Of a DNA stretch of 64,000 bases, positions 8,832 to 57,296 are shown in pieces; the first letter of the stretch is position 1, and each line of letters opens with the position of its first letter. The position numbers and the translations under genes were made by a program. The notes beneath the pieces were generated by a model. It made no database searches. It was given only the letters and a program-made list of their open reading frames with translations, and was not told where the DNA came from. Where the stretch lies: assembly GCF_003790525.1 (NCBI RefSeq), contig NZ_CP033635.1, one strand, 5' to 3'. The stretch comes from Escherichia coli. GTDB taxonomy: Bacteria > Pseudomonadota > Gammaproteobacteria > Enterobacterales > Enterobacteriaceae.

Positions 8832-9959
8832 ATGTCAAATCTGTTTGCGATTAATGTCTGTAAAACGTTCGGTTGTCGAAATTTGGGATTGGCCTCATCG
8901 GAAGATTACAGTTGGCCAGACTATAAACTGGGTTTTCCGGCACTGCACTGCCAGGCATGCGGAAGTTACCCCCCTTTGTTTGATGAACAACAATTTCGTG
9001 ACTGGTTGTCAGTTCACATGACTGCGTGTGCCATAGAAACAGGGCATTTTTGTCCATCATGCTATTGTAAAGAAAAGATTTTTTATGGCCACAACCCGCA
9101 GGGAACACAACGCGTTCAATGCCGTTCATGCAAAAAAGTCTGGACTCCGAAACAGCAGCCAGCAAGAGAAATTACGTATCCCCAGTCCATTGAAACCGTT
9201 CAACTGTTCATGCCCTTTCAAGGAGCCAGCGCAGTACAAAAGCTCTATGTTTTAGTCAGTCTTGACGCCACTCGTGGCAACATCCTTCATCTCTCCACGA
9301 ATTATACGCAACATCAGACAGGAGACAGTCTGCGGTACAGTTACAGAGGCAATACAGAACCAACTGAGCACCATAGCGATATTGTGCAGAGGGTAGATAT
9401 GCGTGAAGCGCAATTCTTGCGCCGGAGCCAGTTCGATGAAATTCAGTATGGCAGTGCTGTGCTCAAGCGCAACGGCAAGGGAGCCATACTACGCCCGGTT
9501 ATCACGGCACACGGGCATTTCAGAATACTGAAAATCCGCTTTCCACATGTCAAAACGCATATCATTTCACACGAATGTTTTCTGAGAGGCGCAATTATTA
9601 CAGCCTGGGCAGATCAGTTCCGCCAACAACAAGGCGAACTTTGGTTCGTAGAAGAAGAAATCAGCGACCGTAACGCTGATATTCCCTGGCATTTTCAGGG
9701 AACGACATACCATGGTTGGTGGCAAAATCAGTGGCAACGCTGGGGGCAGGGGAATAACAGCAAGATGGTCTGCCTGCTCACAGGAGTCTCCTTAGAAAGG
9801 GGCGCAAATGTTTCTCTGGCAACCAGTCGTTGCTTTATCACATGGCTGACAGACCAACACGACTTTACCCAAAGCGCGTTATTATCCGCAGGTCGCGTAA
9901 CGAAAATGCTGACCTCACTGGCGTTAAAATACAATGAATCGCTCACTCCATCTTGTTAG
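8832..9959 (+). CDS. Hypothetical Cys-rich protein with putative N-terminal zinc-ribbon
   Basis: 375-aa ORF; N-terminus has paired CxxC motifs (CQAC, CPSC, CRSC); no family confidently recognised. Confidence 0.55.
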   Translation: MSNLFAINVCKTFGCRNLGLASSEDYSWPDYKLGFPALHCQACGSYPPLFDEQQFRDWLSVHMTACAIETGHFCPSCYCKEKIFYGHNPQGTQRVQCRSCKKVWTPKQQPAREITYPQSIETVQLFMPFQGASAVQKLYVLVSLDATRGNILHLSTNYTQHQTGDSLRYSYRGNTEPTEHHSDIVQRVDMREAQFLRRSQFDEIQYGSAVLKRNGKGAILRPVITAHGHFRILKIRFPHVKTHIISHECFLRGAIITAWADQFRQQQGELWFVEEEISDRNADIPWHFQGTTYHGWWQNQWQRWGQGNNSKMVCLLTGVSLERGANVSLATSRCFITWLTDQHDFTQSALLSAGRVTKMLTSLALKYNESLTPSC

Positions 9960-39454: not shown

Positions 39455-39570
39455 GCGCTTTGTCCATGCCGGATGCGGCGCGAACGCCTTATCCGGCCTA
39501 CAAAAGTTTGCAAATTCAATAAATTGCAGAATTCATGTAGGCCTGATAAGCGAAGCGCATCAGGCATTTT
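39455..39570. repeat. REP/BIME palindromic units between sbp and pfkA
   Basis: gccggatgcggcgcgaacgccttatccggcctac and gtaggcctgataagcgaagcgcatcaggc. Confidence 0.6.
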
Positions 39571-40764: not shown

Positions 40765-41667
40765 TTATGAAAGCATAGACCGTTTACCCTCCCTGGGTAC
40801 GACGGAACAGGGGTCCTGATGGATAATCACATCCGATCCCGGAAAACGCCGTAAAATAGCCTGCTCTACCTGATCCGCCACCATATGTGCCTGAACCAAA
40901 GGCAGAGAGTCTTCCATTTCCAAATGAATCTGAATAAAGCGGGTCGGCCCTGACTGCCGCGTGCGAAGATCGTGAGCGCCGCTAACACCCGGCCAGGAAG
41001 TCACGATATCAATAATTTCTTGCCGTTCTTCATCAGGCAATGCGCGATCCAGTAATGACTGTACCGCCTCATATCCCATGCGTAACGCGCTATATAAAAT
41101 ATAGATGCCGATTCCCAATGCAAACAGAGCATCGGCGCGATGCCAGCCGTACCAGGACAACCCCAGCGCCAGCAGAATTGCGCCGTTCATCATAACATCA
41201 GACTGGTAATGTAGCATATCAGCCCGCACCGCCTGGCTTTGCGTCCGGCGCACCACCCACCGCTGAAACGAGACAAGGATAATCGTACAAATTAGCGCCA
41301 CAATTGTCACGATAACCCCGACGCCTGGATCTGTCATCGGTGTTGGAGATACCAGATGTTGAATACCCGTCAAAAACAGGAATAGTGCCGAACCGGAGAT
41401 AAACATACTTTGCGCCAGCGCCGCGAGGGACTCAGCTTTACCGTGACCAAACGAGTGATTATCGTCGGCAGGTTGCAGGGAATATCGCACCACCAGTAAA
41501 TTCGTCAACGACGCGCCGATATCCACCAGCGAATCCACCAGCGCGGCGAGAATACTCACCGACCCGGTATACCACCATGCAAAAATTTTAATCAGCAATA
41601 GCAGCGAAGCCATCGCCGTCGCAGCAATCGCCGCCCGACTGACCAGCCGTCCATAAGATTGATTCAT
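40765..41667 (-). CDS. fieF: Cation-diffusion-facilitator Fe/Zn efflux transporter
   Basis: Start trimmed to [42 protein letters not shown]; CDF-family features. Confidence 0.9.
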
Positions 41668-41748
41668 AAATACTCCCGCTATCAACTGACGGTAGTATAA
41701 CGGAAGCAAATCATCTGCAATGCATTAAGCAGCAAGCAAATTGAGGAT

Positions 41749-41776
41749 AAAAAAAACCCCCACATCATGTGGGGGA
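41749..41776 (-). terminator. Strong rho-independent terminator upstream of fieF (minus-strand sense)
   Basis: Minus strand reads cccccacatgatgtggggg followed by tttttttt; it sits where a cpxP-type 3' end would be expected, but no cpxP coding sequence follows. Confidence 0.55.
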
Positions 41777-41878
41777 AGACAGGGATGGTGTCACAAAAAA
41801 TCACCTAACCTACTGATATAAATGGATTTATATAAACCACTGTCCACATAGCGTCCACATCGACCATAAATAAAGCCC

Positions 41879-41891
41879 CTCAACTGAGGGG
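41879..41891. repeat. IS4 target-site duplication, left copy (CTCAACTGAGGGG)
   Basis: 13 bp identical to 43318..43330, directly abutting the IS4 end. Confidence 0.8.
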
Positions 41892-43317
41892 TAATGCCGA
41901 TCAGTTAAGGATCAGTTGACCGATCCAGTGGCTGTGTAAGAATCCGGAAACGCTCACTTGTTTCCGGATTTTTTTATGCACATTGGACAGGCTCTTGATC
42001 TGGTATCCCGTTACGATTCTCTGCGTAACCCACTGACTTCTCTGGGGGATTACCTCGACCCCGAACTCATCTCTCGTTGCCTTGCCGAATCAGGTACTGT
42101 AACGCTACGCAAGCGCCGTCTTCCCCTCGAAATGATGGTCTGGTGTATTGTTGGCATGGCGCTTGAGCGTAAAGAACCTCTTCACCAGATTGTGAATCGC
42201 CTGGACATCATGCTGCCGGGCAATCGCCCCTTCGTTGCCCCCAGTGCCGTTATTCAGGCCCGCCAGCGCCTGGGAAGTGAGGCTGTCCGCCGCGTGTTCA
42301 CGAAAACAGCGCAGCTCTGGCATAACGCCACGCCGCATCCGCACTGGTGCGGCCTGACCCTGCTGGCCATCGATGGTGTGTTCTGGCGCACACCGGATAC
42401 ACCAGAGAACGATGCAGCCTTCCCCCGCCAGACACATGCCGGGAACCCGGCGCTCTACCCGCAGGTCAAAATGGTCTGCCAGATGGAACTGACCAGCCAT
42501 CTGCTGACGGCTGCAGCCTTCGGCACGATGAAGAACAGCGAAAATGAGCTTGCTGAGCAACTTATAGAACAAACCGGCGATAACACTCTGACGTTAATGG
42601 ATAAAGGTTATTACTCACTGGGACTGTTAAATGCCTGGAGCCTGGCGGGAGAACACCGCCACTGGATGATACCTCTCAGAAAGGGAGCGCAATATGAAGA
42701 GATCAGAAAACTGGGTAAAGGCGATCATCTGGTGAAGCTGAAAACCAGCCCGCAGGCACGAAAAAAGTGGCCGGGACTGGGAAATGAAGTGACAGCCCGC
42801 CTGCTGACCGTGACGCGCAAAGGAAAAGTCTGCCATCTGCTGACGTCGATGACGGACGCCATGCGCTTCCCCGGAGGAGAAATGGCGGATCTGTACAGTC
42901 ATCGCTGGGAAATCGAACTGGGATACAGGGAGATAAAACAGACGATGCAACTGAGCAGGCTGACGCTGAGAAGTAAAAAACCGGAGCTTGTGGAGCAAGA
43001 GCTGTGGGGTGTCTTACTGGCTTATAATCTGGTGAGATATCAGATGATTAAAATGGCGGAATATCTGAAAGGTTACTGGCCGAATCAACTGAGTTTCTCA
43101 GAATCATGTGGAATGGTGATGAGAATGCTGATGACATTGCAGGGCGCTTCACCGGGACGTATACCGGAGCTGATGCGCGATCTTGCAAGTATGGGACAAC
43201 TTGTGAAATTACCGACAAGAAGGGAAAGGGCCTTCCCGAGAGTGGTAAAGGAGAGGCCCTGGAAATACCCCACAGCCCCGAAAAAGAGCCAGTCAGTTGC
43301 TTAACTGACTGGCATTA
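41892..43317 (+). mobile_element. Insertion sequence IS4 (1426 bp, apparently intact)
   Basis: Terminal inverted repeats taatgccgatcagttaagg (left) and gcttaactgactggcatta (right, reverse complement taatgccagtcagttaagc); single transposase ORF; 13-bp direct repeats on both sides. Confidence 0.9.
41976..43304 (+). CDS. insG: IS4 transposase
   Basis: 442-aa translation [40 protein letters not shown]... matches IS4 transposase as I recall it. Confidence 0.9.
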
Positions 43318-43330
43318 CTCAACTGAGGGG
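43318..43330. repeat. IS4 target-site duplication, right copy (CTCAACTGAGGGG)
   Basis: Identical to 41879..41891. Confidence 0.8.
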
Positions 43331-43342
43331 CTATTTTTGTGA

Positions 43343-43561
43343 TCACATCCACATAATTTGCTGCCCTGACGGCAACGGGTGCGGCCTCACGGCGTGGACT
43401 TCTCCCGGCTTCACGATGTATCTCTGTACCGACTCATAAGTGATGAACGTGGCGCTGCAATTCACGTTCTGGCACTGGTGATAACGCTCTTTTGTCGTGT
43501 CAGTGATATAGCGGCTTGTACGCGCATGTGCGGCATGCTGGCATAAAGGACAATGAAACAT
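43343..43561 (-). CDS. ogr: P2 late-gene transcription activator Ogr (zinc-finger)
   Basis: 72-aa translation MFHCPLCQHAAHARTSRYITDTTKERYHQCQNVNCSATFITYESVQRYIV...; Cys4 zinc finger. Confidence 0.95.
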   Translation of the reverse strand: MFHCPLCQHAAHARTSRYITDTTKERYHQCQNVNCSATFITYESVQRYIVKPGEVHAVRPHPLPSGQQIMWM

Positions 43562-43642
43562 CGCGAGCACCTCTTCCGGTTTTGTTGATAGTGCCATTTT
43601 AGTTAAATTATCATTATAAAACAAAAAGATAAACAAAAGACA

Positions 43643-44806
43643 TCACTCATAATCTTCTGTTTCGTACTCCACATCAGAAAGCCTGACCTCAAGCTCTAAG
43701 GACGTCGTGAAGCCGCTATTATTCAGAAAATGTGTCACCTTAGTGACTGTCCAGTCCTGCTCGTCTATGACGCGCTTAAAGCCTGACACTCTGACCGGTG
43801 TTTCCGTGTAAATATCTGCACGACCGGTAGCCAGGATGATGGAGAACTCCGCAACGCCCCGTTGCAGTTTATCCCACTTCGCCTGAGCAGCACGCATGGC
43901 CTGTGCTTTCGTGGCATATACCGTGGTCAGGGCAAAAACGTTGTCAGCCTCACCGGCCATGTATTCACCTTCGCGCGCTTCCGGTACTTTTGGCGCTTTC
44001 TTCTGCGTGACTGGTTTCGCTTTCGGGTGCTCCAGTGCGCGCAGGTGTTTTTCTTTCTTTTTGCGTTTCAGTTTTACCTTCTGCTTTTGCGGCTTCGGGT
44101 CTTTGGTGTGAAGCCACTTTGCCGTTACGCCGGTATAGGCTCCACGGTCAGCAATCGCAAAATGATGACGGTCGCCGTCGCTGCGGGTGATGGTAATCTG
44201 CGGGATTTTTTTACCGCTGGCCGTCACCCCCTGCCCCGCTTTGAGAAACAACAGTTTTCCCATTTTTACCGACACCTCACCGCCGTTGCGTTCAGCAAGG
44301 CGGGTCAGGAATTTTGCATCAGACTCCTGCGACTGGTCGATGTGCGGGATTTTAATTCCGGCCAGTGACGGAGCGACACTGGCTTCCAGCCTGTTACGGG
44401 AGGCTATCGCCTCAACAATCGCACCGAGCGTGGTGTCATGCCAGGAGCCTTCACGGCGGGAATTGAGCGTGCCACGAAAATCTGCACTCCGGGCCCGGAT
44501 GGCGACCACATCCGGCGTGCCCCGGTGTTCTACCTCATCAACGGTGAATTTCCCTTTGCATACCAGGGCAAAACCTTTCCAGCCGATATACACCGTCAGA
44601 ACAGCGCCACGAACCGGCAGTTCGACCTGCCCGTCGGCATCGTTCAGTTCAATATCAAGCTGATCAGCCTCAAAGCCCCGGTTATCCGTCAGGGTCATGC
44701 TCATCAGACGGTCGCTGATATTGCCGGTAATATCCCTGCTGTCGAGCATCAGCATGTAATCCGGCGTCAGCGTACTGCCTGCATCAAATGTCAGCGCATC
44801 CAGCAT
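43643..44806 (-). CDS. D: P2 gpD-like tail protein
   Basis: 387 aa; position between U and ogr. Confidence 0.85.
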   Translation of the reverse strand: MLDALTFDAGSTLTPDYMLMLDSRDITGNISDRLMSMTLTDNRGFEADQLDIELNDADGQVELPVRGAVLTVYIGWKGFALVCKGKFTVDEVEHRGTPDVVAIRARSADFRGTLNSRREGSWHDTTLGAIVEAIASRNRLEASVAPSLAGIKIPHIDQSQESDAKFLTRLAERNGGEVSVKMGKLLFLKAGQGVTASGKKIPQITITRSDGDRHHFAIADRGAYTGVTAKWLHTKDPKPQKQKVKLKRKKKEKHLRALEHPKAKPVTQKKAPKVPEAREGEYMAGEADNVFALTTVYATKAQAMRAAQAKWDKLQRGVAEFSIILATGRADIYTETPVRVSGFKRVIDEQDWTVTKVTHFLNNSGFTTSLELEVRLSDVEYETEDYE

Positions 44807-50264: not shown

Positions 50265-51164
50265 TCAAAGAATTAGCACTTGCTCTTCACTAGAAACTAT
50301 GGTTCTGACTTCACGCTCAAATATTGGATCCATTATCATTTTTCTATTTGTTGGAATAGTAAATTTACCGAGTACCATGACAATGCTACTCAACGGAAAT
50401 AATTTTGGAGTAACATTTCCTAATTGAATCGTAGGATATATATTAAAGCCCCCTTTTATCCTCATTGGCGAACCTTCAATGAAGTGTCGATAATTAAATT
50501 TCGCCATAGGGATTCTCGCCACATGCACTTTCATAATTACAGCAACCTGAGCTATTTTTACTTTCTGGAGGTAAGTTGACAATCGTTCTAACTGCGTTGT
50601 TTCATAGAAAAAATCAGACCACGTTACAGTACTTGTTCCAGTAACAATTTTTATGCTGTTTCTCTTGTTGGGGTGAGCTTTTCCATATTCATAGATCTCC
50701 CGTAAGCTATCCATGTTCTTCACATAAGGGGCTTTCCGACCTCTCTTGACATAAACGCGGTCTGTAGTATCAGAAGGTGGATTTGCCTGCATAGCTGCAG
50801 CTTTTCTGCTTAATTTAGAGATATCATCTTCATCGAGTATATGTATACGGAATATATTATTACCTGTGGCAAGCGCACGGCTGATATCATGACTGGAATC
50901 ACTTGCATAAATTGTATTCAATCCTGAAGTTCCATACTGGCATAATTTGTCATGCGTGAAATTTTTTTCCAGTCTAAAGAAGGCGGGGATATGCAAGGTT
51001 TTATTAAAACTCCGACGAATATGGCTTTTGACATACACCAAATGAGCAGAGCAATTTGGGTCAGGACATTTGAGTGGATAGGGATTAACACTATAATTAA
51101 AAGTATTTACATTTACTAAAATCTGATTGTTATCAATAGCCTGAGTTATACGAATACCACTCAT
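50265..51164 (-). CDS. AT-rich cargo (moron) protein at the P2 Z/fun position between G and FI; candidate phage-exclusion protein
   Basis: 299-aa ORF with markedly lower GC than flanking tail genes; occupies the slot where P2 carries the T5-exclusion gene Z/fun; no family recognised. Confidence 0.6.
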   Translation of the reverse strand: MSGIRITQAIDNNQILVNVNTFNYSVNPYPLKCPDPNCSAHLVYVKSHIRRSFNKTLHIPAFFRLEKNFTHDKLCQYGTSGLNTIYASDSSHDISRALATGNNIFRIHILDEDDISKLSRKAAAMQANPPSDTTDRVYVKRGRKAPYVKNMDSLREIYEYGKAHPNKRNSIKIVTGTSTVTWSDFFYETTQLERLSTYLQKVKIAQVAVIMKVHVARIPMAKFNYRHFIEGSPMRIKGGFNIYPTIQLGNVTPKLFPLSSIVMVLGKFTIPTNRKMIMDPIFEREVRTIVSSEEQVLIL

Positions 51165-56439: not shown

Positions 56440-57225
56440 ATGTTCAGTGATAATGTGACTAATGCGTGGTGGTTTATCTCTTTGTATCTATTTTTATTAA
56501 TAGCATTAACATTTGTTACCTTTGGTAAAAGTAATCTTATGAGGTTTATTGCACATCATTTCAATCTTGAGTATTCAGACAGAAAGTTAAAAATGCTCGA
56601 CAAAAAATGGCGCGACATTCAACTATTTAAAATAATTAACGGAATCAATGTATCAGGCATCGAAGATGTGAGAATGATACAGCAGGGGCTGATTGATGGA
56701 AAACTAAAAACATCGTATTTTTTCCTTACTCGCTTCTGGGGTGACATAACAAAACCACCACACATAATTAAAACAACAATTGTAATTCTGGCCAGTATTA
56801 TTTATATTCTCTTCGCATGTTATATACACAATGAACAATCCGCTATAGTAAGGGATGCCATAGGTATACCATATAAAAATATGATGTACTATGTTTATAG
56901 TGACAAAGTTCTTTTATCCTTCAAAAATAAAACGGTTGAATTTAATAAAACTTATAGCCTTGCCGATTGCAAGAGTCTGCAAAACGTATTTATAAAAGAC
57001 ACACTTCCCGAGATCGCCTGCAATAAGCTCTTACAGCTAAACAAGGAGGACTCCGAATGGTTAAGTCAGGAGATTAAAGATAATAACAGCCACAGAAAAA
57101 CATTATTAATAATATCCCTAACCTATTTCATTTCAGGTCTGCTTATATTCCTGTCATATACAAAATTCCTTTACGCCAATAAGAAGGTTTTAGAATACAA
57201 AGCATCAAATAAAAACCACTCATAA
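56440..57225 (+). CDS. AT-rich cargo (moron) membrane protein at the P2 orf30 position between S and V, opposite strand to the late operon
   Basis: 261 aa, about three predicted TM helices, very AT-rich, divergent from V; no family recognised. Confidence 0.6.
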   Translation: MFSDNVTNAWWFISLYLFLLIALTFVTFGKSNLMRFIAHHFNLEYSDRKLKMLDKKWRDIQLFKIINGINVSGIEDVRMIQQGLIDGKLKTSYFFLTRFWGDITKPPHIIKTTIVILASIIYILFACYIHNEQSAIVRDAIGIPYKNMMYYVYSDKVLLSFKNKTVEFNKTYSLADCKSLQNVFIKDTLPEIACNKLLQLNKEDSEWLSQEIKDNNSHRKTLLIISLTYFISGLLIFLSYTKFLYANKKVLEYKASNKNHS

Positions 57226-57261: not shown

Positions 57262-57296
57262 TGCTTAATTGCGCATCAGCCTCTGCCTTGATAAAA

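Follow-up and report, generated by a model that had tools for sequence, protein, structure and literature searches.

The window analysed here is a 64,000-nucleotide stretch of Escherichia coli DNA (contig NZ_CP033635.1), in which positions 41668-43642 join the host gene fieF to one end of a P2-like prophage. Reading away from the fieF start codon, 78 bp of host sequence lead to a 47-bp attachment core that contains an intrinsic terminator; the core is followed by a short phage arm, a copy of IS4, the late-gene activator gene ogr and gene D, beyond which the prophage continues to the end of the window (Table 1). On the minus strand the terminator consists of an 8-bp stem, six of its pairs G-C, that closes a 3-nt loop and is followed by a run of eight T residues, and the folding energy of its 58-nt context is -17 to -19 kcal/mol. 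A first-pass annotation, made from the letters alone, had described a strong minus-strand terminator past fieF and then, in place of a CpxP coding sequence, IS4 and a P2-like prophage entered from its ogr end, and this description was borne out on each point: the stem runs from 41775 to 41757 and ends in T8, the element is an IS4 of 1,426 bp and Ogr is identical to that of phage WΦ at 72 of 72 residues. Translation of 41777-41891 in all three minus-strand frames gives nothing like CpxP, and the best tblastn match of CpxP to the whole window has an E value of 0.17.

Table 1. Features at the fieF-prophage junction and in the adjoining prophage, with positions in the window
Feature	Position	Strand	Basis or remark
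fieF CDS (host)	40765-41667	-	ORF list and NC_010498.1 RefSeq annotation; start codon at 41667
B' arm (host fieF upstream region)	41668-41745	-	Two base substitutions relative to the BL21 empty site, otherwise the same
47-bp att core, attR copy (GACACCATCCCTGTCTTCCCCCACATGATGTGGGGGTTTTTTTTATC)	41746-41792	-	Single exact match in the window
Intrinsic terminator within the core	41749-41775 (stem 41757-41775, T8 41749-41756)	-	Terminator scan and RNA fold
Phage P arm of attR	41793-41878	-	Four substitutions relative to WΦ attP
P-arm Int arm repeats (TGTGGACA; TGTGGACG)	41841-41848; 41852-41859	-	P2-type
ogr-distal terminator hairpin	41876-41891	-	Terminator scan; uninterrupted hairpin in WΦ
Left 13-bp target duplication (CTCAACTGAGGGG)	41879-41891		Perfect copy
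IS4	41892-43317	+	Exactly 1,426 bp; transposase ORF 41958-43304
Right 13-bp target duplication (CTCAACTGAGGGG)	43318-43330		Perfect copy
ogr, late-gene activator	43343-43561	-	RefSeq; 72/72 identical to WΦ Ogr
Gene D	43643-44806	-	ORF list and RefSeq annotation
Visible remainder of the prophage, from gene D into terminase gene P (partial)	43643-64000	-	NC_010498.1 annotation

Features beyond the window (attL, cpxP and int) were taken from the RefSeq record NC_010498.1 of E. coli SMS-3-5 (locus L001 in our comparisons). A 336-bp query spanning the fieF/prophage junction is 100% identical to this record, and over its final 25,437 bases the window is the reverse complement of the record, with one mismatch; positions are converted as window position = 4485564 - NC_010498.1 position. 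At window position 57289, in the intergenic region between gene S and the phrog_2407 ORF described below, the base is A (on the strand of the record) and NC_010498.1 has C. As annotated in NC_010498.1, the host genes rhaT, sodA, kdgT, yiiM, cpxA, cpxR and cpxP precede the prophage, which begins with int, C, cox, B, A and accessory genes and continues with the P2 late genes Q, P through T, U, D and ogr; IS4, fieF and pfkA follow, and the annotation marks none of the features in this region as a pseudogene. From the end of the window the prophage runs 12.8 kb further, by way of A, B, cox, C and int, up to attL and cpxP. Its genome measures 35,001 bp with IS4, which adds 1,439 bp, and 33,562 bp without it; the related phages measure 32.7-33.8 kb, compared with 35.0 kb here. 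Further along the host side of the window, the sbp-pfkA spacer contains an Rfam match above the gathering score to the ES036 (CssrF) sRNA (39503-39544, plus strand).

The 47-bp core GACACCATCCCTGTCTTCCCCCACATGATGTGGGGGTTTTTTTTATC is identical at 47 of 47 positions in attR, in attL, in the empty attB of BL21 and in WΦ attP. It occurs twice in the SMS-3-5 locus, in copies 35,001 bp apart, once in the BL21 empty site and once between int and ogr of WΦ. A four-way alignment resolves attL into B arm, core and P' arm (BOP') and attR into P arm, core and B' arm (POB'). The boundary between host and phage lies at 41792/41793, since non-lysogenic E. coli genomes align with the window only through 41792 and, with attL as the query, only through the final base of the core; over 41560-41792 the window is 98-99.6% identical to these non-lysogens. 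The prophage lies exactly where cpxP would otherwise follow fieF, as the first-pass annotation had supposed from the gene order of K-12. In addition to the two arm repeats of the P arm, two further tandem repeats are present in the P' arm (L001 about 8899-8925), and the repeats on both sides of the core read TGTGGAC(A/G), in agreement with the P2-type Int arm-site consensus tgTGGaCa (PMC3448106). An A+T-rich stretch of the P arm may be an IHF site.

In the MG1655 RefSeq record, cpxQ (b4716) is a 58-nt gene (4106330-4106387) that begins 9 nt past the cpxP stop codon and ends at the eighth T of the terminator. The core (4106344-4106390 in MG1655) spans nucleotides 15-58 of CpxQ and the next 3 nt, and integration therefore restores the sRNA and its terminator base for base. 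At attL in NC_010498.1 the complete 58-nt CpxQ and its terminator are present with the same sequence and the same predicted fold as in BL21; the first 14 nt and cpxP itself are host-derived, and the remainder comes from the core. CpxQ of MG1655 has a one-base difference in the terminator loop. The loop is thus polymorphic, reading CATGCTG in MG1655 (L004 1370-1374) and CATGATG in BL21, in WΦ and in both copies of SMS-3-5 (window 41764-41768), so that the K-12 attB is identical to the phage core at 46 of 47 positions; the loop alleles at attL and attR among lysogens could place the crossover.

The copy of CpxQ in the window, at attR, is confined to nucleotides 15-58. Because P-arm sequence takes the place of the first 14 nt, and of cpxP, this copy is an orphan terminator fragment and not a second CpxQ gene. 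It differs from CpxQ in having neither the 14-nt 5' end with the nhaB/cfa seed nor the cpxP promoter nor the context for RNase E processing; the seed at the CpxQ 5' end acts on nhaB and cfa (PMC6755755). Rfam searches returned no match to a CpxQ family in the window at gathering thresholds or in the BL21 empty site at permissive thresholds. The sole Rfam match in the BL21 spacer (L003 1690-1762, corresponding to window 41749-41792 together with the host B arm) was to RF02628, Hrs1 ('Hfq-regulated sRNA 1'); it scored 44.5 bits, below the gathering score of 56.4. The strand matched is not that of cpxP/cpxQ but the opposite one, and the consensus of the model starts with the reverse complement of a terminator, so that Hrs1 may be a homologue of CpxQ that was modelled on the wrong strand. 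In the searchable literature we found no paper that places the WΦ core inside CpxQ or ties P2-like phages or their integrases to this overlap. The position of the WΦ core within CpxQ is a modest addition to what is known.

The presence of this module in attP and attR raises the question of whether it is transcribed, for example by read-through from ogr, as a phage-borne CpxQ-like RNA that binds or titrates Hfq. The phage carries 44 of the 58 nt in the orientation of ogr: 18 nt and, after them, the terminator module that binds Hfq, with its hairpin and U-tail. However, an RNA from this region would have neither the 5' seed for nhaB and cfa (PMC6755755) nor the cpxP promoter, and two terminator-like hairpins, one at the right end of IS4 and one being the ogr terminator, stand between ogr and the core. 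Furthermore, the requirements of an attachment core fully account for the shared sequence. We thus regard such an RNA as improbable, although if it existed it would touch the envelope stress response.

The int gene is 99.7% identical in nucleotide sequence to that of Escherichia phage WΦ (NC_005056). About 45 further phage records, fiAA91-ss, L-413C and Salmonella phage STYP1 among them, have int genes with 97-100% identity to it. In comparison with the WΦ proteins, Int is identical at 324 of 326 residues, C at 97 of 97, Cox at 90 of 90, B at 165 of 166 and Ogr at 72 of 72. Judged by these sequences, the prophage is of the WΦ class in both immunity (C and Cox) and integration specificity. Its 47-bp core is identical to that of WΦ (Peduovirus Wphi, NC_005056), its P and P' arms are near-identical and carry the same tgTGGaCa repeats, and it occupies the same host site in the same orientation, int on the cpxP side and ogr on the fieF side (PMC3448106; PMC3032704). 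It differs from WΦ in the IS4 inside its ogr terminator and in its length (33,562 bp with IS4 excluded, compared with 32,684 bp), and its accessory genes (a DNA methyltransferase, a ParB-like gene, the phrog_2407 ORF and the phrog_7195 ORF) may differ from those of WΦ.

Two of these accessory ORFs lie within the window. The ORF at 56440-57225 (plus strand, 261 aa) is located between S and V. That at 50265-51164 (minus strand, 299 aa) has the tail-fibre assembly gene on one side and FI on the other, which corresponds to the Z/fun position of P2. Their only PHROG matches are to phrog_2407 and phrog_7195, respectively, both families without an assigned function, and searches of the two ORFs with PADLOC and Pfam gave no match. 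Such positions are hotspots for cargo and defence genes in P2-like phages, which makes both ORFs candidates for uncharacterised functions. Outside the window, the region equivalent to the old/tin cargo position (L001 14733-18672) is annotated in NC_010498.1 with five genes encoding a DUF3850 protein, a short hypothetical protein (207 bp), a DNA cytosine methyltransferase, a second hypothetical protein and a protein with a ParB N-terminal domain.

Comparison with P2 itself shows a shared mode of integration at a different address. The prophage has in common with P2 (at locI/locH, in the cyaR region) and with other P2-like phages (at rybB and ssrA) a tyrosine integrase, arm-type repeats and a Cox excision factor, and with the P2 family at large a target at the 3' end of a small-RNA gene that is restored by the phage core (sites in PMC3032704 Table 2). 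Unlike P2, it uses another core sequence and another host locus, and its immunity is of the WΦ and not the P2 class. The first-pass annotation had not found the classical P2 core and concluded that the integrase probably has another specificity. The 27-bp sequence that it quoted, AAAAAATAAGCCCGTGTAAGGGAGATT, which we take to be the P2 core, is indeed unmatched in the window with up to three mismatches allowed; it is absent because the prophage is of the WΦ class in integration specificity, and the different specificity is that of WΦ, as the near-identity of Int and the WΦ core indicate. The P2-like structural genes and the absence of the P2 core could also be read as P2 proper, or a phage with a novel integrase, at a secondary or previously unknown site. 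Against this, Int, C and Cox are essentially identical to those of WΦ, the core is that of WΦ attP, and the literature already assigns this site to WΦ; about 14.5% of genomes have it occupied. The identity to WΦ attP rules this explanation out, and we give it next to no weight.

The current MG1655 record (4,641,652 bp) is longer by 1,977 bp than the old one, the length of which we take to be 4,639,675 bp. The site of WΦ and L-413C, that of WΦ having been identified earlier, is tabulated at MG1655 coordinate 4104392 (Nilsson et al., 2011; PMC3448106 Table 1). This coordinate refers to the older version of the record, and adding the length difference of 1,977 bp gives 4106369, which is in the terminator loop and within the core at 4106344-4106390. 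The insertion sites listed for the E. coli W genome include 'cpxP-fieF: Wphi1 (P2)' (PMC3032704 Table 2), and a study of O157:H7 describes a 31-kb prophage between cpxP and fieF (PMC7609406). The match to the published WΦ attB is thus made through two secondary tables and one coordinate conversion. Among 5,426 complete E. coli genomes, the identical attR junction is present in 787 and the attL junction in 790 (∼14.5%), while the core region is found in all but one (5,425). The unusual conservation of CpxQ may give the WΦ integrase a near-universal attB.

The first-pass annotation had also asked whether cpxP and the sRNA derived from its 3' end are displaced or truncated, and had proposed looking for cpxP on the far side of the prophage and for the integrase and attL at its other end. 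Both searches succeeded in NC_010498.1: the far end has a WΦ-type Int and an attL core 35,001 bp away, and a full-length cpxP (166 aa) adjoins attL, about 12.8 kb past the right end of the window. The encoded CpxP differs from that of BL21 at two residues. Damage by the prophage or by IS4 to cpxP, CpxQ or both, weakening the Cpx envelope stress response, might be suspected from the window itself, which does not include cpxP and in which only the last 44 nt of CpxQ adjoin fieF. It is contradicted by NC_010498.1, where the full-length cpxP, the complete 58-nt CpxQ and the terminator directly precede the P' arm and int, and where CpxQ at attL has the same sequence as in BL21. With both genes complete at attL, 35 kb away, truncation is ruled out, and the chance that it nevertheless occurred is negligible. 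The integration is a routine one at a P2-family site that has already been described, because an undamaged cpxP is present at the other end of the prophage and the locus matches the attB known for WΦ, a member of the P2 family (PMC3448106 Table 1; PMC3032704 Table 2), the very combination that the earlier annotation had said would reduce the case to routine.

IS4 stands 100 bp from the junction. Its 1,426-bp length, its 448-aa ORF (RefSeq product 'IS4-like element IS4 family transposase') and its 13-bp target duplication (CTCAACTGAGGGG) agree with a class characterized by terminal inverted repeats and duplications of 11-13 bp. Deletion in silico of IS4 and one copy of the duplication yields the contiguous ogr-attP sequence of WΦ, the attP of which has no IS4. 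In this restored sequence an 8-bp hairpin between runs of A and T forms a minus-strand terminator after ogr, and the target duplication keeps the hairpin whole where IS4 begins on the left; a terminator-like hairpin facing ogr is also present at its right end. Any effect of IS4 on ogr is probably small. IS4 prefers targets of the form AAA-N20-TTT, and the target in the ogr terminator (window 41874-41891 and 43318-43338) has exactly this form. IS4 entered 20 bp beyond the distal arm repeat, and the recombination sites of Int therefore look intact; the prophage would be expected to be still able to excise. IS4 is present at exactly this position in 13 of the 5,426 complete E. coli genomes, with all junctions 100% identical, which suggests a single lineage-specific event. 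The proximity of IS4 to the junction might suggest that an IS4-mediated rearrangement, and not site-specific integration, brought fieF and the prophage together, but the duplication is perfect, removal of IS4 restores contiguous WΦ ogr-attP, and the same fieF junction is present in 787 genomes but IS4 at this position in only 13, so that this origin is ruled out and has scarcely any probability left.

We conclude that positions 41668-43642 are, very probably, the attR of a full-length WΦ-type P2-like (Peduovirus) prophage at the canonical WΦ site between cpxP and fieF. The tyrosine integrase would have recombined attP with attB within the shared 47-bp core. One product, attL, consists of cpxP, the host 5' part of CpxQ, the core, the phage P' arm and int; the other, attR, consists of ogr, the phage P arm, the core and the fieF upstream region, with an orphan second terminator before fieF. 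In a later step, IS4 would have transposed into the ogr terminator hairpin in one lineage. With this arrangement fieF would keep its own upstream region and the attR terminator would be expected to shield it against read-through from the prophage, and the expression of cpxP/CpxQ and of fieF would be predicted to be unaffected.

The apparent lack of cpxP beside fieF, which SMS-3-5 shares with roughly one of every seven E. coli sequenced, is thus a normal consequence of WΦ-type lysogeny and not a lesion of the Cpx system, and annotators should read a CpxQ-like terminator upstream of fieF as an attR scar. Finally, cpxQ joins cyaR, rybB and ssrA among the small-RNA genes with 3' ends that serve the attachment of the P2 family.
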